A stretch of 53,430 nucleotides of DNA from a virus (lineage: Duplodnaviria; Caudoviricetes): positions 1 to 53,430 of the IMG/VR virus record IMGVR_UViG_3300042312_000048, one strand, 5' to 3'. Below the pieces are notes generated by a model. The model did no database searches. It worked only from the letters and a program-made list of their open reading frames with translations, and was not told where the DNA came from. This document shows, in pieces, positions 31,108 through 45,320 of this stretch (positions are counted from its first letter, which is position 1; each line of letters begins with the position of its first letter). Both the position numbers and the translations under genes were made by a program.

Positions 31108-32211
31108 TTAATTCGTTAAAAATCCTACAGCATAGGGTTCATCTACAAGAGAACTGTGACACTTGTGTTCACATTCTACCCATGCCTTTTTTGTATCATC
31201 AAAACTATTAAAGAGGTATTTCCAAACATCATCATTTAAAACTTCTTCTAATGATTTTGTTTTAATACAAACTTTATCTCTGTATACTTGATGAAAACTA
31301 TCTTTCCAATAAATTCTTTTACGCTCAGTTTCGTTATAGTCATAGGGAAAACTTACCCAACTGCATGGGTGTAGTACTCCATCAGCACTTACATATAAAC
31401 CGCGATTACCTATACTACACATAGGAGTTATAAATTTATTATGCTTACTTGACACTTCTTTATATAAATCATAATTTTTTTGCAGGTATGAATCGTTGTT
31501 TTGTTTTCTACCTGTGATATCTTTAAAATATCTTTCGTACCTATGTGTCTTGCTAATGAATTCGGCTCTAGGTTCTAATGGATCAGTATTACCACCGAAC
31601 GACTCGCCATACTTACTACCGAATTTCGTGCTATAAGTTAGTTGTAATCCGTCGCAACCCTTTTCTTTTGCTAGATTATAGATAGTATCTAAATGGTCTT
31701 GATTAAACGAAAATACAATAGTTGCCCAATAAACGAATGCAGGGCTTTCCTTACACATGATTTCCATACCAGTCATTATAGATTCCCAATCATTGTTGAC
31801 TCTGTATAGATCGTTAGATTTTTCATCATACCCATCTATACTAAAGTTTATGGTATCATACTCATTTGATAGTTTTGCGAATTTTCGCCACCAGTCTGGT
31901 TTTTTGTAACTTCCATTTGTTATAGTATAGATATGAATCTTTTCGTTATGACTTTTGATATACTCAATAATTTCAAGGTACTGTGAAGCATAAATCGGAT
32001 CTCCGATATCACCGCACATTGTGATTCTCTTTACTTCATTCTTAAGTAAGTCAGGAGTTAATGTATTCTCAAAAAACTTTAAATCAAGTTCATGATTAAA
32101 CCACGGTACACGATCTGTGTCATTTCTAGGACATCTAGGACATTGTAGCGTACATTTGCCGCTTACTTCAAAATGCCAATGATATAATTGCCATGGATAT
32201 TTTAAGTTCAT
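31108..32211 (-). CDS. Radical SAM enzyme with SPASM/twitch-like C-terminal cysteines
   Basis: CTLQCPRC (CxxxCxxC), GDP, TNG, FSIDG, C..G...YVSADG.LHPC, terminal CEHKC. Confidence 0.92.
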   Translation of the reverse strand: MNLKYPWQLYHWHFEVSGKCTLQCPRCPRNDTDRVPWFNHELDLKFFENTLTPDLLKNEVKRITMCGDIGDPIYASQYLEIIEYIKSHNEKIHIYTITNGSYKKPDWWRKFAKLSNEYDTINFSIDGYDEKSNDLYRVNNDWESIMTGMEIMCKESPAFVYWATIVFSFNQDHLDTIYNLAKEKGCDGLQLTYSTKFGSKYGESFGGNTDPLEPRAEFISKTHRYERYFKDITGRKQNNDSYLQKNYDLYKEVSSKHNKFITPMCSIGNRGLYVSADGVLHPCSWVSFPYDYNETERKRIYWKDSFHQVYRDKVCIKTKSLEEVLNDDVWKYLFNSFDDTKKAWVECEHKCHSSLVDEPYAVGFLTN

Positions 32212-32810
32212 GGACTTATCTCAATAAATTTTATATTGTCATCAAATAAGATTTTGATGATTTGTCCTGCAACATATTTGGCTGTTAGATGTTTATTTTG
32301 ATAAATGTCCTGATATCTTTCAGTATCATTTTTATATCTGTTTTTATTAAAATTTGTTTTAGTAAGACCTACACGAACCTCTAAAGTCCTTATATTAGGA
32401 TACTCTATTTGAAGCATACTATTAAAGTCTGACAATGATTTTTTAGTTAAACTATAAGTTAAATTATTAGGGTAATATCTTTTATTATTAGTGCTAGTAA
32501 TATTAACAATCTTACAATTTGAATTTTGTTTTAATACTTTTTGTGTCAGTAAGACAGGAGATAATAAGTTGGTATTTAAAATAGAAACGACATTATTTGG
32601 ATCATGGTTATCAAAAATTATCTTACCGCCTATATCTGTACCGGCCATGTTAATTAGTATATCAACCTCGGGCATGTCAAATTCTATAACGTCTTGTATA
32701 TTAGATAAGTCTAAAATATCCCGGGTGAGCGGTATAATCTCAAACTTGTCAAGACTATTGGTTAATTCTTTTCCAATACCGCTATTGGCACCCGTTATTG
32801 CTATTTTCAT
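32208..32810 (-). CDS. Short-chain dehydrogenase/reductase (SDR)
   Basis: TGANSGIG, INMAG, IVNITS, catalytic YSLTK. Confidence 0.92.
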   Translation of the reverse strand: MKIAITGANSGIGKELTNSLDKFEIIPLTRDILDLSNIQDVIEFDMPEVDILINMAGTDIGGKIIFDNHDPNNVVSILNTNLLSPVLLTQKVLKQNSNCKIVNITSTNNKRYYPNNLTYSLTKKSLSDFNSMLQIEYPNIRTLEVRVGLTKTNFNKNRYKNDTERYQDIYQNKHLTAKYVAGQIIKILFDDNIKFIEISP

Positions 32811-36669: not shown

Positions 36670-38367
36670 ATGGCTACTTGCGCTGAATTATCACAACAGG
36701 CACAGAAATTTGCTACAGCATTAGCACAAGCAACAATAAGAGGAGACAACCTCTTAAAGTTACCTATACCTAATACAACTAACCCTTCTGAAACCCTAGC
36801 TGTACAGACACAGATTACCGGCTTAGTCAACAGCATGAATATAGTTAATGCTGAAATAAACAAACAACTTAGCAATTTAAATTCTACTAGAAGTCAACAG
36901 GAAGCACAGAATTGTCCTAGAGACGGCTATTTTAATACTAGAAAGGCGGCAGAAAAAACATTAGCAGCATTACAAAGTAAAACTCAAGTAGCACAACAAA
37001 CTTTTCAAAATTTACCACCTGCGCCATCATCTAATACTGCTGTTGTGCCCAGCGGCAATACTTTGATCACGCCTGGGACGCAAGCCCCGAACGATTTTCC
37101 AACAATTACTGTTATAGGTACTAAAATACCTGACGGCAAAATTACGGTTGCTGATCCTAATTTGGTCACGCCGTCATTAGATCCTGCACTATTAGGTCCT
37201 CCAAATATTAATACAGGACAACTTGAAGGTACTGATGTTAATATTCCTACTGGTGCAGGTAATATAGATGTTACTGCACCAAACTTAAACATCACGGGGG
37301 AATTGCAAGGTGGTGACGTAAACATCCCAACAAACGCAGGAAATATAGATGTCACAGCGCCAAACTTTGACCTTACTGAAGATGAAGAATTAGAAGAAGT
37401 CGTGGTTACTGCCAACAGAGCTCCAACAACGCAAGGTGCAGTACAAAATACTAGAAAGCAAGCATCACTAAGACAAGAAACAAATTTTGAAGCACGAAAA
37501 GACTGGCGCGTTAAGTTGTCTTTAAGCCCCGGCGCTACATATTTGTATAACGATAACTCAAATGTTTTATTAGCACCTCTAAGAGGTACTAATGGTGTTA
37601 TTTTCCCATATACCCCTAGTGTACAAGTAGGATATAGCGCAGCATATGGAAATTACCGTCCATCGGGTTCAAACTATTCATATCCATATTATGATAGTAG
37701 CGCCATAGATAGTATTTCAATAACAGGTGACTTTACCGCTCAAGATAATTATGAAGCAAATTATCTATTGGCAACGATACACTTTTTCAGATCGGTCACG
37801 AAAATGTTCTATGCATTAGACTCAAATCCTAAAGCTGGTACGCCTCCCCCAGTTTTATTTCTAACAGGATTCGGACAATTTATGTTTAACAATCACCCAT
37901 TGGTGATAACTAATTTTACATATACTACTCCAACAGATGTAGACTATATCAGAGCAGGAAACTTTACACAAGGTGCTGGGTCACAAACAAATGACAGTAA
38001 TAACGATGCCCTTAAAAAATCAACAAACTGGAATTGGGGAACATTGTTACAAAACACTATACAAAATACATTGGCTTCGGGCGCAGCAGCAATTGGTAAT
38101 TTCTTGAACTTTAGTAAAGACTATAATGTGTTGACTCCAGGTGGAGAATTAGGACAGGCTAATTGGACTTATTCAGGATTTAAAGGATTTAATTCGGGAG
38201 AAACAGCAAATCCAACATATGTACCCACTAGAATGCAGATACAACTTTCAGCAATGCCTGTACCAAGCAGACTAGATGTCAGTAACTACTTCAGTCTCAA
38301 AGATTATGCTAACGGTAAGTTGTTGAGTGGATACAACGGAAAAGGTAAAGGCGCAGGATTCTGGTAA
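36670..38367 (+). CDS. Baseplate/tail-tube junction protein (gp48/gp54-like) with long N-terminal extension
   Basis: C-terminal domain GVIFPYTP..ISITGDFT..FFRSVTKM..G.PPPV..L...G..F...P.VITNF resembles tube-initiator folds; directly upstream of gp53-like gene. Confidence 0.65.
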   Translation: MATCAELSQQAQKFATALAQATIRGDNLLKLPIPNTTNPSETLAVQTQITGLVNSMNIVNAEINKQLSNLNSTRSQQEAQNCPRDGYFNTRKAAEKTLAALQSKTQVAQQTFQNLPPAPSSNTAVVPSGNTLITPGTQAPNDFPTITVIGTKIPDGKITVADPNLVTPSLDPALLGPPNINTGQLEGTDVNIPTGAGNIDVTAPNLNITGELQGGDVNIPTNAGNIDVTAPNFDLTEDEELEEVVVTANRAPTTQGAVQNTRKQASLRQETNFEARKDWRVKLSLSPGATYLYNDNSNVLLAPLRGTNGVIFPYTPSVQVGYSAAYGNYRPSGSNYSYPYYDSSAIDSISITGDFTAQDNYEANYLLATIHFFRSVTKMFYALDSNPKAGTPPPVLFLTGFGQFMFNNHPLVITNFTYTTPTDVDYIRAGNFTQGAGSQTNDSNNDALKKSTNWNWGTLLQNTIQNTLASGAAAIGNFLNFSKDYNVLTPGGELGQANWTYSGFKGFNSGETANPTYVPTRMQIQLSAMPVPSRLDVSNYFSLKDYANGKLLSGYNGKGKGAGFW

Positions 38368-38681
38368 TGTCACAAAATAATATATACCCATCAACAAGTC
38401 CTTACAGAGACACAGAAATTTTTAATAATAAATTTCTTGACTTTATGGTCAATAGACCTTTCCCTGCATCTAGTAGCGATGTTCTTTATACATTGCCTAT
38501 CGCTTATCAATATCGTCCTGACTTGTTAGCATATCATTTATATAATGACAGCAGGTTATGGTGGGTATTTGCAGCAAGAAATCCTAATCGTTTAGGATTT
38601 GACCCTTATTTTGATTTTGTAGCAGGCATACAAATATACATACCAAAATTAGAAACATTACGTCAATATTTAGGTATATAA
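38367..38681 (+). CDS. gp53: Baseplate wedge LysM-like subunit, gp53-like
   Basis: YRPDLLAY.LY....LWWVF..RN and G..I.IP motifs. Confidence 0.8.
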   Translation: MSQNNIYPSTSPYRDTEIFNNKFLDFMVNRPFPASSSDVLYTLPIAYQYRPDLLAYHLYNDSRLWWVFAARNPNRLGFDPYFDFVAGIQIYIPKLETLRQYLGI

Positions 38682-38682
38682 C

Positions 38683-41600
38683 ATGGCAATCGTTAATGTA
38701 AATGGGCCAGATGCAACAGTAAGAAGATGGCCTAAAAGTTCTGGCTCTAGCGAATTTGTTGATATTAATATATCCGGCACAGTCAATGATAAGACATTAA
38801 AACCAGAAATGACTGTAAGATTGCCCGGTGGAAAGACTATTACCGGAGACATTAATTATTGGAATAGTATAAAATCAGCAGGTGGTGTGCCCGGTCTTAA
38901 CGAAGAACAGTCATACTATATGACTCAGTTTTTAACACAGCCTACTCAAACAGTTAAAGACTCTAGCGGTTTTCCAGTAAAATTAAAAGGATTTCCTGCA
39001 CTAAAAGAAGTTTATTCTAGCGTAGATGAAACATTAAAAGAAAGAGAAAGAGAAGATACGCTACCAGGCACAAAAACATCTACAGAGGACTTAACATTAC
39101 CTGACGGTACTAAAGTCAAGACTACAACAGTGAACGAAGTTAGTGAGCCAAGAAATCCTGCAAGCGAAAATAATCCTACTCCACAGCCTTCAACAATAAA
39201 TCAAACACCCGGCGACAATGCTGACAAGAAACAAATAGTTGGGGCAGGAGACGACGATCAAAGTCCTAATAAACAAAATACAGTAGATGGTACTAATACC
39301 GGTAGCACAGTAGCCAAAGATGAATTTGGACTTCCTGTAGGTACTATTATTGATCCTACAGGATGGGGACCATCAGCAGGATCTTCTAACTCACAGACTG
39401 ATAGTTCGGGCAAACCTTCTGGAAGTAGACGCACCTACAATCCATTAGCGCAACTTTCTAGTTATTCTTATATTATAACACTGTATATGATAAGTCCAGA
39501 TGCTTACAAAGCATTTATTGATTCTGGTAGAAAAAAGATAGATGCATTATCTAAAGCAACTCCTGTAGGTGAAGGTAGTCCTAATGTTGAAGGAGGTGCA
39601 TTGATTGTTGCTAGAACAGGGGGCAACAACACAACAGACAGAATAGGCAACATGGATTATTTTATTGATAATTTAAGAATGAGTTCTTATATCAATACTA
39701 AAACTACAGGTGCGGCGATAGCGGCTGTGAGTGAAATTTCTTTTACAATTTCTGAACCATATGGTTTTAGATTTATAACTGATTTAAAAAATGCTGTAAA
39801 AAGATTGCAAGCACAATCAACATCGGCAAGTTATAAAAGCATGACATCATTGTTTAAACAATTTTTTATATTGGGTATAAAATATTATGGCTATGATGCA
39901 GATGGTAATTTGATAAAAGGCACAGATAAACTTTATGGAAATATGGTAGATCCATTAGGCGGCGATGGTTTATTTGAAAACTTTTATGATATACAAATAC
40001 AAGATTTTAGATTTAGATTAACAGGCGATACTGTGACTTATAATGTGACCGCAGCCGTTCCTGTGACACAGAATGTGTTAGGTGTTAAAAGAGGAAGAAT
40101 ACCGACAGGGGCAACAGTACAAGGTAAGACTGTTGAAGATGCATTGATAGGTGAGTATGGTCTTTTCACAAACCTAAATAAAAAAGAAGAGGATAAACTT
40201 AAAAACGGCAATGTGACTTATCCTAATAAATTTAGTGTTGTGTTCATGGGAGAAGCAGAACAGTTAATTAAAAAATCTCCGTTAGTGACATCAAATGATT
40301 TAGAGAAAGCAAGATTTGGTGATCCGTTATTGAACACGACTAAAGAAGTTAATGAAACACAAGCACAATCACCACCTGACACTACCTCAAGAATTTTATC
40401 TTTTGGTCATGATACCTCAATAATTTCTGCGATTGAAACAATCATAAAGAAAAGTGCTTATATGGTTGATGCATTAAACACACTTTATACTAATGCTAAA
40501 GAACCTAATCCTTCACAGAAAAATTATGAACAAATTAATCAAGAACCACAAACATTAAGGTGGTTTACAGTCACTAGCGATATTAAAAAAGTTGATTGGG
40601 ATCCTAAAACAAATGACTGGGCTTATGATTTAGTTTATATCATACAAGTTTATGATATACCTAGCATGGAGACTCCATATTATAGCACAACGTCAAAGTA
40701 TAGGGGCCCTCATAAACGTTATGACTATTGGTTTACAGGGCAGAATAGTGAAGTGCTTGATTTAGATTTTACATTAGATAATACATATTTTCTTTCTATC
40801 ATGGGTTTCCCTAATAAAAATACACAACCTTCTGCTTCAACACCGGGAAATAGAGAAACAAACACTGATCAAAGACAAACGACAGGTCCAGCGGCTGGCA
40901 ATGGAAACTCTACAGCGAATTCTACTGGACTAAAAAATGACCCGCAAGCCCCGAACAATCAAGGACCATCAGAAAAAAATGCTTCAGGTGGCGGCGAATT
41001 CTCTGTAGCACCGGGCATAGTTAATAACGCAGATAAAAGTTCATCATTAGGGGTTGGTCTAGAAGCAGAAAATACTGTAGCAACTTATCTATATGATCCT
41101 CAGGCATTCAGCACTGCCAGACTACAAATTATAGGAGATCCAGATTTTCTTGTAAGAGATTCAACTACAACTATTAATAGTTTGTATAATCAATATTATA
41201 ACACAGACGGATTTACACCTAATGCAAATGGCGGACAAGTATTTGTTGAGATAGGATTCAAAGAAGGTGTTGATTATAGAGATACTGATGGATTACTAAA
41301 CATAAACGATAATATTTTATTTTTAACATATCCCGATTACGTAAAAAAAATAAGTGAAAATAGAATCGTATACATGGTAGCCCAGGTTGACAGCCTATTC
41401 AACAGAGGTAGATTTACACAAACACTTAGTTTAGTACAGCCATACTTTCCAGGTAGTTCTACTGCACCGCCAACTGCGCCTGCTCAAAGCACGCCTGCAC
41501 AAAATCCAAATAACTCACAAACTGTGAGTGATACTAGCAAGGGAACTACTACTGCCAATGATGACGCACTACAAGAAGTTCAGGTCACTGGTAGAAGAGT

Positions 41601-41727
41601 CTCTCCTGCCCCTGCAAAAACTGAAGGCAGACAATCAGATAATCTAGCGAATAAGACTGATGCAGAGTTATTCACTTTAGGTTATATGCCTGATGAATTT
41701 GATAAAGTAAGAAATGGTGGTGGCTAA
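38683..41727 (+). CDS. Baseplate hub protein (gp27/VgrG-N-like) with disordered extensions
   Basis: Position between gp53 and gp5; F.I.EP.G, I.GDP and C-terminal Y.V..V...F..G.FTQTL.L hub-type motifs. Confidence 0.65.
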   Translation: MAIVNVNGPDATVRRWPKSSGSSEFVDINISGTVNDKTLKPEMTVRLPGGKTITGDINYWNSIKSAGGVPGLNEEQSYYMTQFLTQPTQTVKDSSGFPVKLKGFPALKEVYSSVDETLKEREREDTLPGTKTSTEDLTLPDGTKVKTTTVNEVSEPRNPASENNPTPQPSTINQTPGDNADKKQIVGAGDDDQSPNKQNTVDGTNTGSTVAKDEFGLPVGTIIDPTGWGPSAGSSNSQTDSSGKPSGSRRTYNPLAQLSSYSYIITLYMISPDAYKAFIDSGRKKIDALSKATPVGEGSPNVEGGALIVARTGGNNTTDRIGNMDYFIDNLRMSSYINTKTTGAAIAAVSEISFTISEPYGFRFITDLKNAVKRLQAQSTSASYKSMTSLFKQFFILGIKYYGYDADGNLIKGTDKLYGNMVDPLGGDGLFENFYDIQIQDFRFRLTGDTVTYNVTAAVPVTQNVLGVKRGRIPTGATVQGKTVEDALIGEYGLFTNLNKKEEDKLKNGNVTYPNKFSVVFMGEAEQLIKKSPLVTSNDLEKARFGDPLLNTTKEVNETQAQSPPDTTSRILSFGHDTSIISAIETIIKKSAYMVDALNTLYTNAKEPNPSQKNYEQINQEPQTLRWFTVTSDIKKVDWDPKTNDWAYDLVYIIQVYDIPSMETPYYSTTSKYRGPHKRYDYWFTGQNSEVLDLDFTLDNTYFLSIMGFPNKNTQPSASTPGNRETNTDQRQTTGPAAGNGNSTANSTGLKNDPQAPNNQGPSEKNASGGGEFSVAPGIVNNADKSSSLGVGLEAENTVATYLYDPQAFSTARLQIIGDPDFLVRDSTTTINSLYNQYYNTDGFTPNANGGQVFVEIGFKEGVDYRDTDGLLNINDNILFLTYPDYVKKISENRIVYMVAQVDSLFNRGRFTQTLSLVQPYFPGSSTAPPTAPAQSTPAQNPNNSQTVSDTSKGTTTANDDALQEVQVTGRRVSPAPAKTEGRQSDNLANKTDAELFTLGYMPDEFDKVRNGGG

Positions 41728-41729
41728 CA

Positions 41730-44700
41730 ATGGCAACTGACGTACAAAAAAGCAAAGGTAAATTAAAGCGCAGCAGCCCTACATCGGGCGGATCTAATCC
41801 TGAACTAGTACCTAAGATAGGCATCGTCAAAAATAATAGCGACAGCACACGTTCAGGACGCATTTGGGTTTATATATCAGACAACAGCGGCACAGACCCA
41901 GAAGATAGCACTTGTTGGAGACCTGTTTTCTTTTTAAGTCCTTTTTATGGCAAAACATTGAATACTGCGCCGAATACCGGCGAAGGCAATTTCAAAGGTA
42001 ACACACATAGTTATGGAATGTGGTTCAGTCCTCCAGACATAGGAACATCTGTATTATGTGTATTTGCTAATGGTGACTTAAATTTTGGTTATTACATAGG
42101 ATGCATACCAGATCCACAAGCATTACACATGGTACCGGCTATTGGATCTAGCACATACATCGTTCCGGGATCAGGCGAAGCAAACAAGTATGGCGGTGCA
42201 ACACGATTACCTGTAACGAACGTTAACAGTAGCAATAAAGAGATCACTAACACTGGTAAATATTTAACAGAAGCGAAACCAGTACACCGATATGTCGCTG
42301 CTACAATGTGGCAACAAGGCATTTTGCGCGATCCTATAAGGGGGCCTATAAGTTCAAGTTCACAGCGTGAAAATGCAAGTAGAGTGGGTTTTGGTATTAG
42401 CACTCCCGGAAGACCTATATATGAAGGCGGATTTAACGATACTAATATAGTTGATAATTTGACCCCAGATAAAGCCGATAGTTTAAAAATTATAGGTAGA
42501 AGAGCAGGTCATAGCATAGTGATGGATGATGGCGATGTTATCGGAAGAGATCAATTAATAAGATTACGCACAGCAGACGGTCACCAAATCACTATGAGTG
42601 ATGATGGTCAAACCATTTTTATTATTCATAAAAACGGACAAAGTTATGTTGAGCTAGGTAAAGAAGGCACAGTTGACATATACTCTACAAATAGTATTAA
42701 TCTACGAACACAAGGTGATTTAAACCTACACGCAGATAACAACTTAAACATACATGCAGGAAAAAACTTAAATATTTTTGCCGGCGAGGCAATGCATGTA
42801 CAAAGCACTAAAGAATTTAAGTTAAGGGCAGGAGCAGATTTAAGTATTTTCACAACATCTATTTTTACTGCTAAAGCATCTGGTGCTATGAGTTTAGAAA
42901 GTACAGGTGATATTAGTATGGCATCATCTGCAAAAGCCTTTGTGAATGGAAGTAGAGTCAACTTAAATTCAGGCAAAACAGGTACGACTCCTAAAGAAGT
43001 GCCTGCGATAGATCAAGTATTGCATACTGATACGTTGTTTGATAGTGCAAAGGGTTATGTAGCAGCGCCTGCAAAATTAAAGAGCGTAACTAGTAGAGCG
43101 CCGGCACATGCTCCATGGACAAACGCAGGTCAGGGTGTTGATATTAAGAGTAACTTAAATGCTGGTTCAAATTTACCAAGCAAACCAAATACTGCTACAA
43201 GTTCAATTAATACAGCAGCAAGAAACGGCGGAGTCACTAATCCAGTATCAAATGCTACGATTGCAAAAACTCCCGTCAAACAAAACATCAGTAATGCTAT
43301 TGATAAAAATGCGACTCAGGCGTTGTCCGCTCAAGTTGCTACAAATGCTGCTGCAGGTCCTGCAGCCGACGCAGTGAAAAAAGGTGCGACCCTTGTTCAA
43401 AATGCTACAGGCAATAGCACTGTTGCTATTGGACAATTTGCTCAAACACCAAAACAATTAGAACAAGCAGGTATATTAAAACCTGGTTCATCAAGCCTAG
43501 TTGATAGCCTTGTAGCATCAGGATCTAATATTGCCAATGCTATACCTAGTACTCTGTTTACAGGTAAACCAGGCGCAGAAAATCTGCCTGCGTTCATCAA
43601 TAATATAGGAGCACAGCAAGAATCGTTAGCAAAGAATTTACAGATTGCACAGACAAAATTACAAAATGCTGGTGCGATAACTGGTAATGAATCAAGTACT
43701 GAAATAGGTGGTGTGATATTATCTGCTGCAAATAACGGTGTAGACAACGTATTAGGATCAATGCAAACATCTAAATTGTCAGATTTCTTACCTGGTAGTG
43801 GTCCTAACATTCAGTCCTTTACTAACAAACTAGATCAAACATTAAAAGATGTCTCACAAGGAAATTTTGCTAGCAAACTAGGTGAATCTGCAGGCGGAGC
43901 ATTGGATGGTTTACAATCATCATTGAGTGCAATGTTTAAATCTTCTTTAGGAAATGCTAAACCAACATCACAAGGAACAGCAGCAGATGCATTCAGTGCT
44001 ATAGTAAGTTCTATACCGTCATTAGTACCAAACAAACCTCAAAATCTAACAGCAGAAGCAACTAAGTCAGCAGAAAAAACGACTGCTGCATCAGTTGGTA
44101 ATGAATCTCAAAATCTTGCACAGGGTTTATTTGGAGCAGCAACAAACATAGCAACAGACAAATTATCAAGTTCAGTAGCCAAAAAATTATCAGGGAACTC
44201 ATCCGATCCATTAGTTTCTGCTGTTGTGTTACCATTAACAAACAGTTTAGCGTCCTCACTGATCGAGGCTGCTAAGCCTAAAGCAAATGTTAATGTTGAC
44301 ACTAAAAATTCAGTTGCAACTTTAGCATTGGGTGTAACAGATCCTCAAACTGCTGCAAAAAATACAGCAGATAGCGTATCTGGAATTAAACAGGCAGCAC
44401 AAACTGTGGCATCCGGATTAATCTCAACAACTGCTGCTACATTGGCATCAGGTGTAAATAATTTGCCCGGCGGCCAAGACGCTGTGTCAACTGTCAATAA
44501 TTTAGCAAGTTTAACTCAAAACATTCCTAATACAAATGATTTGAAGGTTGCTATACAAAATGGGGCGACAGATGCCATCAATAACGCACAAAATACTTTA
44601 GGTAACAATCCTACACTACAATTAATAAATGCTACAGCAAGCGATGTTCAAGCGTTAGCAAGCAAAGATGGAATAGAACAATTGATTAGTGCCGGATTAC

Positions 44701-45320
44701 CTGCTGGTAAAGTTGCTGAAGTTAAGAACGCACTATCAGCAATCACATCACAAGGCAGCGGAGTAAAGATGCCTTCTGTTGGTGTGAATACAAATGATAG
44801 AAGTTCATTAGAAGCAGGTGTTAAAGATGCTCTTGAAGATCCGGGACTACCGGCGCCTACATATGGAGAAGTTGATAGAGAAACATTAGACGATAAACGT
44901 AAACAGAAGAAAAAAGAATCTGATGCATTATATCAAACTTATCTTAAAAAAGATGAAGCATCACAAATAGCCTTCAATGATTTTCAAGATGCGCAGAAAG
45001 CATATGATACTGCACAAAAAAATCTAGTACAAGGTAGTCCAGAACTTGCCAATTTACGTCAAGCAAGAGATGAAAAATATTCAATATATGAGAAAGCATC
45101 CTTAGAAACAGATAAGGCTCTTATAGATTATGAAAATGCTTTAACCACCAATAAAACAAATAAAAATACACAACCATCTAATGTTATCGTCACTACCGGT
45201 TCTCCTGATAATAATCTTGTCGTTTACAGGTCAGTAAATGAAAAAGGTGACGAAGAAATAGGCTGGATTGAAAATAAATCACAGACTACAACGACAACTA
45301 CGAGCAAAAGAGGTTCATAA
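41730..45320 (+). CDS. gp5: Baseplate central spike, gp5/VgrG-like, with long C-terminal extension
   Basis: OB-fold (G.VK.N.D..R.GR..V.I; PPDIG..VL..F.NGD), GH.I.MDD/GHQI.MSD repeats, beta-helix LNLHA/LNIHA repeats. Confidence 0.82.
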   Translation: MATDVQKSKGKLKRSSPTSGGSNPELVPKIGIVKNNSDSTRSGRIWVYISDNSGTDPEDSTCWRPVFFLSPFYGKTLNTAPNTGEGNFKGNTHSYGMWFSPPDIGTSVLCVFANGDLNFGYYIGCIPDPQALHMVPAIGSSTYIVPGSGEANKYGGATRLPVTNVNSSNKEITNTGKYLTEAKPVHRYVAATMWQQGILRDPIRGPISSSSQRENASRVGFGISTPGRPIYEGGFNDTNIVDNLTPDKADSLKIIGRRAGHSIVMDDGDVIGRDQLIRLRTADGHQITMSDDGQTIFIIHKNGQSYVELGKEGTVDIYSTNSINLRTQGDLNLHADNNLNIHAGKNLNIFAGEAMHVQSTKEFKLRAGADLSIFTTSIFTAKASGAMSLESTGDISMASSAKAFVNGSRVNLNSGKTGTTPKEVPAIDQVLHTDTLFDSAKGYVAAPAKLKSVTSRAPAHAPWTNAGQGVDIKSNLNAGSNLPSKPNTATSSINTAARNGGVTNPVSNATIAKTPVKQNISNAIDKNATQALSAQVATNAAAGPAADAVKKGATLVQNATGNSTVAIGQFAQTPKQLEQAGILKPGSSSLVDSLVASGSNIANAIPSTLFTGKPGAENLPAFINNIGAQQESLAKNLQIAQTKLQNAGAITGNESSTEIGGVILSAANNGVDNVLGSMQTSKLSDFLPGSGPNIQSFTNKLDQTLKDVSQGNFASKLGESAGGALDGLQSSLSAMFKSSLGNAKPTSQGTAADAFSAIVSSIPSLVPNKPQNLTAEATKSAEKTTAASVGNESQNLAQGLFGAATNIATDKLSSSVAKKLSGNSSDPLVSAVVLPLTNSLASSLIEAAKPKANVNVDTKNSVATLALGVTDPQTAAKNTADSVSGIKQAAQTVASGLISTTAATLASGVNNLPGGQDAVSTVNNLASLTQNIPNTNDLKVAIQNGATDAINNAQNTLGNNPTLQLINATASDVQALASKDGIEQLISAGLPAGKVAEVKNALSAITSQGSGVKMPSVGVNTNDRSSLEAGVKDALEDPGLPAPTYGEVDRETLDDKRKQKKKESDALYQTYLKKDEASQIAFNDFQDAQKAYDTAQKNLVQGSPELANLRQARDEKYSIYEKASLETDKALIDYENALTTNKTNKNTQPSNVIVTTGSPDNNLVVYRSVNEKGDEEIGWIENKSQTTTTTTSKRGS

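Follow-up and report, generated by a model that had tools for sequence, protein, structure and literature searches.

Why should a virion protein of a tailed phage carry a peptide that reads like the TonB box of bacterial receptors? The question is raised by the virus record IMGVR_UViG_3300042312_000048 of IMG/VR (Duplodnaviria; Caudoviricetes), whose 53,430 nucleotides were analyzed as one stretch (the window). Within a cluster of baseplate genes, a 565-amino-acid (aa) open reading frame (ORF), here called the carrier, has the peptide LEEVVVTANR in a low-complexity linker just before its folded domain. The original prediction, made from the sequence alone, had seen in this linker an array of four TonB-box-like strings, two of them in an 81-bp duplication, and had proposed that the virion brings its own handles for the Ton system of the host. 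We find that one of these strings is a canonical TonB-box-like motif and that it is conserved in the manner of a short linear motif. Beyond what was predicted, a neighboring protein of 1014 aa has it as well, and most of its occurrences across IMG/VR are in proteins of the spike, tube-cap or ejection type. That the motif is a mimic captured by TonB in the periplasm is a reading to which we give about an even chance.

All four strings are present in the carrier ORF. The strongest, DEELEEVVVTANR, covers aa 238–250 (37381–37419), with the core LEEVVVTANR at 37390–37419; PTITVIGTK lies upstream, and the two NIDVTAP copies are at aa 198 (37261) and aa 225 (37342). The predicted duplication also exists. 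Its units (37219–37299 and 37300–37380) share 55 of 81 nucleotides (nt) and 19 of 27 aa, and are too diverged to be reported by repeat finders, including TRF. The strings were scored with a matrix that had no phage input. For this, 30 receptors were picked by Plug-domain score alone from three gammaproteobacterial genomes and a Gibbs search was run on the 60 aa that lie upstream of Plug in each; the resulting consensus is [LIM]-E-[ET]-[VI]-[VI]-V-T-[GA]-x-[RK]. On this receptor-derived matrix, LEEVVVTANRAP (37390–37425) scores 28.2 bits and ranks first of 25,635 six-frame windows; none of 200 shuffled proteomes reaches this value (maximum 18.6 bits). PTITVIGTK scores 2.7 bits, and the NIDVTAP copies −12.1 and −9.6 bits. 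The likeness to a TonB box thus holds for LEEVVVTANR and fails for the other strings. PTITVIGTK aligns with DDLQEVSVTGKK and DDLEEVSVTGKR of distant homologues; because DDLQEVSVTGKK stands in its alignment columns there, we regard it as a decayed copy. NIDVTAP belongs to a second conserved linear repeat, DVNIPTxxGNIDVTAPN[LF]N, which 14 of the 120 listed homologues have and which is confined to the clade of the window. The 120 listed proteins of the 1014-aa family all lack GNIDVTAPN, and by either of the matrices used here the repeat is separate from the TonB-box motif. The carrier of the window has one strong box, one relic and one unrelated repeat, not a four-box array; real arrays, of two to five copies, occur in its homologues.

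How specific to receptors is this peptide? A DNA pattern for L-E-E-V-x-V-T-G-x-R was searched in one genome per prokaryote species and gave at least 120 stretches and at least 80 loci, mostly from Gammaproteobacteria and Bacteroidota among the matches listed. For 76 of the 80 listed ORFs at least 60 residues could be scanned, and in 58 of these Pfam Plug follows directly after the motif; the other 18 contain unrelated families (six) or no family (12). TonB boxes of receptors, of which BtuB and FhuA are known examples, include the 'LEEVVVTGSRI' type of these two bacterial groups. In E. coli, the boxes of BtuB and FhuA read DTLVVTA and DTITVTA. The phage motif has the same L, E, E, V/I, V/I, T and G/A, and the same K/R at +9, which amounts to eight to nine constrained positions. 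By its sequence, it matches the TonB-box consensus of 'LEEVVVTG-type' receptors. The location is also similar. A receptor box stands shortly N-terminal of the plug that closes the channel, and the phage box likewise stands before a domain that, by analogy with T4, may close the channel at the end of the tail tube.

The carrier is nevertheless not a TonB-dependent receptor. It matches no Pfam family, there is no Plug match anywhere in the record, and without a Plug or a 22-strand barrel it shares only the motif with such proteins. Unlike a receptor, it may bear several copies, and C-terminal and loop positions occur. Neither is it a TonB-dependent bacteriocin, since the box-like motif is not accompanied by receptor-binding or cytotoxic domains (no receptor-binding or toxin domain was found by Pfam). 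A scan of the arm and of seven multi-copy homologues against NCBIfam, at E up to 10, gave no receptor family, which is expected for a motif of only 10 residues. The arm of a five-copy homologue gave only chance antibody matches among PDB sequences and no match by tblastn in 50,697 GenBank phage records with the low-complexity filter on. Complex prediction of arm residues 216–265 with the C-terminal domain of E. coli TonB as a stand-in gave 0.27 against a mark of 0.32; it was run without controls and counts neither way.

The original prediction had named absence from homologues as a finding that would speak against it. The motif is conserved. It is present in 41 of the best 120 carrier homologues, with 1–5 copies each in the variable linker; in some, a loop of the folded domain near aa 425 holds a further copy. 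The 93 instances from these 41 proteins gave a second, phage-derived matrix with the consensus D-[GE]-L-E-E-V-x-[VI]-T-[GA]-[KR]-[RK]-x-P, on which the box of the window scores 37.1 bits. Among 21 aligned motif-bearing homologues, L241 and T247 are invariant, and E243, V244 and R250 are at least 90% conserved. Alignment and composition also bear out the predicted setting, a Pro/Thr/Asn/Gly-rich linker just N-terminal of the conserved domain. Neighboring copies are 11–44 aa apart on P/D/G/E-rich spacers, with 14 residues as the commonest spacing (18 of 49 pairs). Copies within one genome share the codon at 45 of 93 identical residues in locus L009 and at 3 of 18 in L002. As the codons differ, it is the peptide and not the DNA that is kept, and on codon usage we reject the view that the conservation stems from gene conversion or from a recent duplication of DNA.

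The motif is also gained and lost. On a folded-domain tree of 121 rows, taken from a quick search, its presence changes 18 times, and at least 14 of these changes are forced by well-supported branches. Proteins with near-identical folded domains differ by a swap of the whole N-terminal half or by the insertion of a single copy, and the linker is swapped or indel-bearing between near-identical proteins. Such variation in copy number, spacing and position, together with gain and loss, is the behavior of a short linear motif. A T4-type prohead-protease site has the form L/I-x-E and was considered, as the window encodes a gp21-like protease. It was rejected, as the motif has ten conserved positions and its carriers are tail proteins, not proteins of the head interior.

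A second copy lies in the 1014-aa protein. With the phage-derived matrix, only two sites in the window reach 8 bits, the carrier box and DALQEVQVTGRRVS. The latter did not help to build the matrix and scores 33.2 bits, compared with a shuffle maximum of 13.1 bits. The motif is found in 22 of 120 homologues of the 1014-aa protein, either in the C-terminal tail or in an N-terminal low-complexity region. In 85 related loci, the 1014-aa gene is always two genes downstream of the first carrier. Both genes are present in 78 loci, of which nine have the motif in both, 65 in neither, three in the 1014-aa protein only and one in the gp48-like protein only. For the 1014-aa protein, ESM Atlas returned scores of 0.81 or less only, and a PDB search with the family profile returned nothing. 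The gp5-like protein of the window has no match to the phage-derived matrix. Two further features of the 1014-aa protein were observed. A conserved end module (TDAELFTLGYMPDEFDKVRNGGG; 41605–41724), common to a subset of the homologues, follows the motif, and an 'ADDD' element precedes it; the latter recurs N-terminally (near aa 185–195) throughout the family, including members that have no motif.

Is the motif confined to particular proteins? The prediction had called for a comparison with shuffles and with proteins that are not at the tail tip. The box of the window stands above all 200 shuffles. Of the 85 related viral loci (1.44 Mb, six frames), 10 have sites of at least 18 bits, all of them within the two carrier families. 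At 19 bits or more on the receptor-derived matrix, all 11 hits in 772,771 windows of these loci lie within the two carrier families; in a second phage group, 590,228 windows gave 33 hits, every one in a single ORF family. In five whole viral records (223 kb), 14 of 14 pattern sites fall in the two carrier genes, and the backwards control gives none.

An exact-pattern scan of the whole of IMG/VR gave 57 stretches with 65 matches in 59 ORFs; the backwards pattern gave 20 stretches. Tip, hub or ejection-type proteins account for 38 of the 59 ORFs, and the remainder is approximately the size of the control. These 38 fall into six sequence families: the gp5-like spike, true gp48, the gp48-like carrier, the 1014-aa protein, a tape-measure/ejection-like protein and an internal virion protein. 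None of 30 ORFs over the control matches resembles a carrier family. For the scan against PHROG the clusters were represented by 10 ORFs, out of 35 that belong to none of the three families known beforehand.

The gp5-like spikes come from uncultured T4-like phages (loci L299 11780–13426, L308 1043–2635, L316 3836–5464 and L321) and have 1–3 copies, located in an Ala-rich linker after the beta-helix, at the extreme C-terminal end, or both. Such parts are the first to enter the periplasm. The N-terminal part of the gp5-like protein matches 1,924 cultured T4-like records, none of which covers the motif-bearing C-terminal part. The beta-helix repeat was considered as a trivial source of the motif and rejected, since the copies lie in the linker after the helix or at the C-terminal end. 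Locus L314 (2–1255) encodes a true gp48 homologue (phrog_230 at 1e-44; hhalign against a T4 gp48 alignment, E 0.0025 over 136 columns) with LQEVTVTGTR and LEEVVVTGRR in tandem in its N-terminal arm, and the internal-virion-protein homologue matches phrog_418 at 2e-7.

Three other groups of IMG/VR matches were noted. Locus L323 (4407–6761, minus strand), on a 57-kb 'viral' contig, encodes a 785-aa ORF that looks like a full TonB-dependent receptor and has the motif at residue 126; either the contig includes host DNA or the phage carries a receptor gene. Six ORFs of approximately 190 aa (L306 7993–8586 and five more loci) share AAIGLEEVVVTGSRADDRFY near residue 45. At 29.5 bits on the receptor-derived matrix this is the best of all viral hits, and the proteins have a weak 'tail fiber assembly' match (E 0.003). 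A 'viral' contig of 108 kb contains a 191-aa ORF (L296 2257–2829) that begins like a signal peptide and continues with LEEVVVTGVR and a domain with an HGCINV motif, a motif of L,D-transpeptidases. The gene could be bacterial, or it could encode a periplasmic enzyme that has a box of its own.

The motif is also found in a protein unrelated to either carrier. A phmmer search with the five-copy arm against 1.84 billion representatives gave nine proteins at E up to 0.001: four of the carrier family, an unrelated 1024-aa protein with seven copies, three fibre-like proteins and one unrelated protein with repeated DTLQEI units. Relatives of the 1024-aa protein were found in 50 viral loci (L238–L287) on contigs of up to approximately 57 kb. 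In 40 of the 50, 1–6 copies are present, and only in the 1024-aa-type ORF (648 kb, six frames); PPLEEVVVTGSKPP and EPLEEVVVTGQRPP are examples. These proteins are 800–1300 aa long (e.g. L244 7885–11589, L249 7734–10589), and the copies lie downstream of a Gly/Ala-rich hydrophobic stretch on Pro-rich spacers of 26–89 aa. The gene follows tail-fibre and virion-protein genes and precedes a gene with a weak 'DNA ejection protein' match. The C-terminal end has weak matches to tape-measure families, and Pfam finds nothing in the protein. Its sole cultured relatives are the Caulobacter Riverwalkvirus phages, which share the last 77 residues at 64% identity. Their homologue is annotated as the tape measure (e.g. 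Caulobacter phage GB2A gp065c; L288 7498–9240) and has the decayed elements PVDEIVVTPSQ, TVDPVVVNPP and PVDELVIKPP in a Pro-rich region. The passages available from the paper on these phages do not mention TonB. The Riverwalkvirus phages are a possible entry point for laboratory work.

The three fibre-like proteins (P0242, P0244 and P0246) bring in the possibility that the peptide needs no partner at all, being a beta-strand unit of a repetitive or fibrous structure or a chance likeness in low-complexity sequence. They contain long, regular NL[SD]EVD[VI]TGQSV arrays (NLSEVDVTGQSV repeats), which show that L-x-E-V-x-V-T-G can be a structural repeat. In these proteins the repeat is probably structural, and it cautions against calling every such string a TonB box; the preference for a 14-residue spacing in the carrier family points the same way. 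Against this, the spacing is irregular (11–44 and 26–89 aa), the spacers are rich in Pro, and in many carriers there is just one copy. The scores far exceed those of shuffles, the peptide is conserved despite differing codons, and the excess over the backwards control in IMG/VR sits in tip, hub and ejection-type proteins. We consider a partner-less peptide very unlikely.

What is the carrier itself? The prediction had called it a tail-tube/baseplate junction protein. Its match to phrog_12050 (2.1e-39) extends over aa 267–430; PHROG labels are taken here as annotations, not as tests. By tblastn, the folded part (approximately aa 255–565) matches virion proteins of 88 cultured jumbo-phage records at less than 60% identity, among them 121Q, CBB, PA5oct and XaC1, with the labels 'virion structural protein' or 'baseplate tail-tube protein'. 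In fEgEco12, a jumbo phage of E. coli, the gene order is identical and the gene is annotated 'baseplate tail-tube protein; gp48'; its product has 243 aa, without the N-terminal region or the arm. The carrier gene occupies the position in the baseplate cluster expected of gp48. ESM Atlas features for the carrier score 0.93–0.94, and 23 of 30 hits fall in a set that holds PF11091, found on 22% of the members of the cluster shown; this is a language-model lead. Synteny, the fEgEco12 annotation and this lead together suggest a gp48-like protein. In addition, 20 C-terminal columns match the true gp48 homologue (E 0.049).

Profile comparison does not confirm the label. T4 gp48 belongs to phrog_230 and the carrier family to phrog_12050. 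The alignment of 61 homologues gave hhalign probabilities of 0.1 against T4 gp48 and 0.07 against a 26-sequence gp48 alignment, and no match to T4 gp54. Pfam finds no PF11091 match in the carrier. A PDB sequence search with the 61-homologue profile returned only poly-Q noise. In the N-terminal region, Cys4 (in a conserved MATC start; 36679–36681) and Cys82 (36913–36915) are invariant among the 21 aligned motif-bearing homologues and may form a disulfide or a metal site.

The likeness to gp48 leads to the main rival explanation, a latch within the virion. According to passages of a recent preprint, an N-terminal anchor loop of T4 gp48 sits between gp53 and the sheath before firing (bioRxiv 10.64898/2026.03.06.709160). 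The strand in the carrier could be the counterpart of this loop, pairing with a baseplate partner of the phage itself (the gp53-like protein, the sheath, the hub or the tape measure) and holding the tube end or hub in the extended state; its likeness to a TonB box would be convergence on a good edge strand. The best-conserved copy does lie directly before the fold, the next gene is gp53-like, and in the true gp48 homologue, too, the N-terminal arm has the motif. The T4 loop is short, whereas the arm of the carrier has 255 residues. A latch fits the fold-adjacent copy and does not fit the frequent gain and loss, with near-identical folded domains present with and without the motif and cultured relatives without the whole arm. 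The motif is also found past the beta-helix of the spike, at the C-terminal end of proteins, within a loop of the fold and, in an unrelated protein, in arrays on Pro-rich spacers, and contexts so varied argue against one common baseplate partner. The match of the gp53-like protein to PF11246 spans only positions 44–88 of the 200 in the profile and leaves out the part that forms the platform in T4. Convergence would moreover have to reproduce eight to nine constrained positions that are receptor-specific in bacteria. We regard the latch as unlikely.

We return to TonB-box mimicry, the simplest account of a peptide that is receptor-specific, shows both conservation and modularity, and is limited to those parts of the virion that enter the periplasm. 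Under this account, sheath contraction would drive the tube end and hub across the outer membrane. The linker would then, if the T4 analogy holds, be exposed to the periplasm. The exposed boxes, which in the phage of the window would be those of the gp48-like N-terminal arm and of the 1014-aa C-terminal tail, would be captured by beta-strand addition to the C-terminal domain of TonB, itself anchored in the inner membrane. Capture would couple the tube end to the ExbB-ExbD motor, which is driven by the proton-motive force. The coupling could tether the tube end or pull it toward the inner membrane. It could also, or instead, pull on an arm that leads straight into a gate-forming domain, so that the hub is shed or the tube opens and the genome is released. 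TonB binding and each of these later steps are what the sequence leads us to predict.

The proposal has partial precedents. TonB-dependent bacteriocins (group B colicins, colicin M-like bacteriocins, S-type pyocins and klebicin E), the subject of PMC5358913, PMC4661593, PMC10906532 and bioRxiv 10.1101/2021.05.11.443673, are likewise foreign proteins that parasitize the Ton system through their own TonB box in an unfolded segment. They differ in being soluble toxins, with a box that is threaded through the barrel of a receptor, whereas the phage box rides on a contractile-tail or ejection apparatus that crosses the outer membrane. Under the mimicry reading, the phage motif would work like the boxes of group B colicins and pyocins. 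Entry of phages T1 and phi80 is coupled to TonB and the proton-motive force, and this dependence runs through the receptor FhuA; the passages seen of that source, a 2024 review, mention no phage protein with a box of its own (PMC11658791). The central spike of T4 contacts PpiD, a periplasmic chaperone anchored in the inner membrane, according to part of PMC7600766. As in our proposal, a myophage tip there meets a host protein with an inner-membrane anchor, but the partner is not TonB and no linear motif is involved. In passages of the preprint cited above, T4 gp48 forms the end of the tube, its ring keeps hold of the tape measure, halts ejection and opens out on meeting a membrane, and the route to the inner membrane is called unknown (bioRxiv 10.64898/2026.03.06.709160). 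A literature search, with most subscription journals outside its reach, found no TonB box described in a phage structural protein, in agreement with the original prediction.

Could the handle serve another protein? The motif may engage a TonB paralogue, the TonB homologue TolA or another envelope protein. It may also be a decoy, keeping TonB engaged and thereby blocking colicins, competing phages or uptake that depends on TonB. Such readings have a background. In filamentous phage, the N1 domain of g3p captures TolA, which spans the periplasm as the arm of a motor in the inner membrane, a homologue of the Ton motor. Peptides of the TonB box are also inhibitors of TonB functions. The g3p case differs in that a folded domain and not a linear motif is used, by a filament and not a tailed phage, and on Tol and not Ton. 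The restriction to envelope-penetrating proteins would support another handle equally well, and the K/R-R after T-G and the acidic residues before L, which differ from most receptors, could tune the motif to another partner. Its core, on the other hand, is the receptor signature, whose only known partner is TonB, and for a decoy the few dozen copies expected per virion seem too few. We consider a different partner, or a decoy, distinctly unlikely.

Several observations weigh against mimicry as we propose it. The motif is absent from 79 of the best 120 carrier homologues and from 75 of 85 loci, and the cultured relatives have no arm; since most relatives are without the motif, it is dispensable for the machine as such. 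DALQEVQVTGRRVS ranks second of 25,635 on the receptor-derived matrix with only 8.8 bits, a score reached by 145 of 200 shuffles. In the reverse comparison, the phage-derived matrix reaches 15 bits at the expected N-terminal place in only seven of the 30 Plug-selected receptors, while none of 100,247 background windows reaches 10 bits, and position +8 is mostly basic (K/R) in the phage family and S/I/T/Q in receptors. The three receptor genomes were reached through loci that already had one exact pattern match, so that both comparisons apply to 'LEEVVVTG-type' receptors and not, for instance, to enterobacterial boxes. Co-occurrence of the motif in the two carriers was considered as a sign of a shared partner and dropped; it is not used as evidence because there are only three independent contrasts (p = 0.5). 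Chance alone would account for approximately 20 of the 59 IMG/VR ORFs. Comparison with gp48 and gp54 profiles shows neither that the carrier is gp48 nor that it is placed at the tube end, and the strand may instead be packed against the fold of the carrier.

The record has 38% G+C, and CheckV estimates its completeness at approximately 15% of the genome, which corresponds to roughly 350 kb. The phage is a T4-like jumbo myophage of that size. No cultured genome is close to the window at the DNA level. T4-type structural and late genes are present (portal, gp21-like prohead protease, major head protein), together with genes for a gp55-like late sigma factor and a gp46/47-like nuclease. The baseplate cluster, on the plus strand, comprises the carrier, the short gp53-like protein and the 1014-aa protein, followed by gp5-like, gp25-like and gp6-like genes. 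The positions of the features discussed are given in Table 1. A 136-aa antisense ORF over the repeat region (37005–37415, minus strand) is unsupported and most likely arises simply from the low complexity of the coding strand. Radical-SAM and FabG-like genes (31108–32810, minus strand), located between the nuclease genes and a RusA-like resolvase, may be auxiliary metabolic genes.

Table 1. Carrier genes, motif sites and neighboring features of the window, and groups of motif-bearing ORFs found across IMG/VR.
Feature	Position	Strand	Basis
Carrier ORF, 565 aa, phrog_12050 virion protein, gp48-like by synteny	36670..38367	+	ORF list, PHROG, tblastn
N-terminal region, aa 1–115, Ala/Gln/Leu-rich	36670..37014	+	composition; Cys4/Cys82 conserved
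Variable low-complexity linker, aa 116–254	37015..37431	+	65% P/G/N/T/D/E/S/Q; hypervariable, gapped in alignments
PTITVIGTK, aa 144–152, decayed motif copy	37099..37125	+	alignment; 2.7 bits
Two 81-nt units, each with DVNIPTxAGNIDVTAPN, not TonB-box-like	37219..37380	+	55/81 nt identical
Canonical TonB-box-like motif EELEEVVVTANRAP, ~10 residues N-terminal of conserved domain	37384..37425	+	both matrices
Conserved folded domain, aa 255–565	37432..38367	+	61 aligned homologues; PHROG and tblastn matches
gp53-like baseplate wedge protein, 104 aa, short form	38367..38681	+	PF11246 1.9e-05; phrog_7145 1.3e-24
1014-aa virion protein, second motif carrier	38683..41727	+	phrog_11190
Second motif copy DALQEVQVTGRRVS, low-complexity C-terminal tail of 1014-aa protein	41563..41604	+	phage-derived matrix, 33.2 bits
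gp5-like baseplate hub / tail lysozyme	41730..45320	+	phrog_13211 at 8.4e-35
13 IMG/VR ORFs, gp5-like 'baseplate hub subunit and tail lysozyme'			phrog_430, E <=8e-75, three representatives
10 IMG/VR ORFs, tape-measure/ejection-like family			similarity to 1024-aa protein family
9 IMG/VR ORFs, gp48-like carrier family			similarity to folded domain of the window's carrier
4 IMG/VR ORFs, 1014-aa family			similarity to the window's 1014-aa protein
6 IMG/VR ORFs, small proteins, ~190 aa			
3 IMG/VR ORFs, 158 aa			one representative with borderline 'tail protein' match, E 0.0097
2 + 2 IMG/VR ORFs, two small groups			one representative matches a PHROG of unknown function
10 IMG/VR singletons, including true gp48, internal virion protein and receptor-like 785-aa ORF			

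Taken across the unrelated lineages, the distribution raises a wider possibility, which we put forward tentatively and at somewhat less than an even chance. TonB-box mimicry may be a general and repeatedly evolved device of tailed phages, in which the Ton motor tethers, pulls or unplugs the delivery channel across the periplasm. The phage's own TonB handles would then be found on spike tips, on proteins of the tube end, on hub-associated proteins and on those for ejection or tape measure, and arrays on Pro-rich spacers could allow hand-over-hand pulling, as in colicin import. The phage copies, which retain L, E, E, V, V/I, T and G/A as well as a basic +9 residue, offer a natural experiment on the positions of the box that TonB needs outside the context of a plug. 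The motif could serve as a marker of periplasm-exposed virion parts in uncultured phages and possibly as a clue to host range. If the reading is true, TonB piracy would extend from bacteriocins to virions, and a route to phage resistance through Ton mutations is predicted. DNA entry of T4 needs membrane energy. TonB capture would provide a concrete and testable form of energy coupling through the parts that enter first, and with it an energy link between puncture of the outer membrane and entry at the inner membrane.

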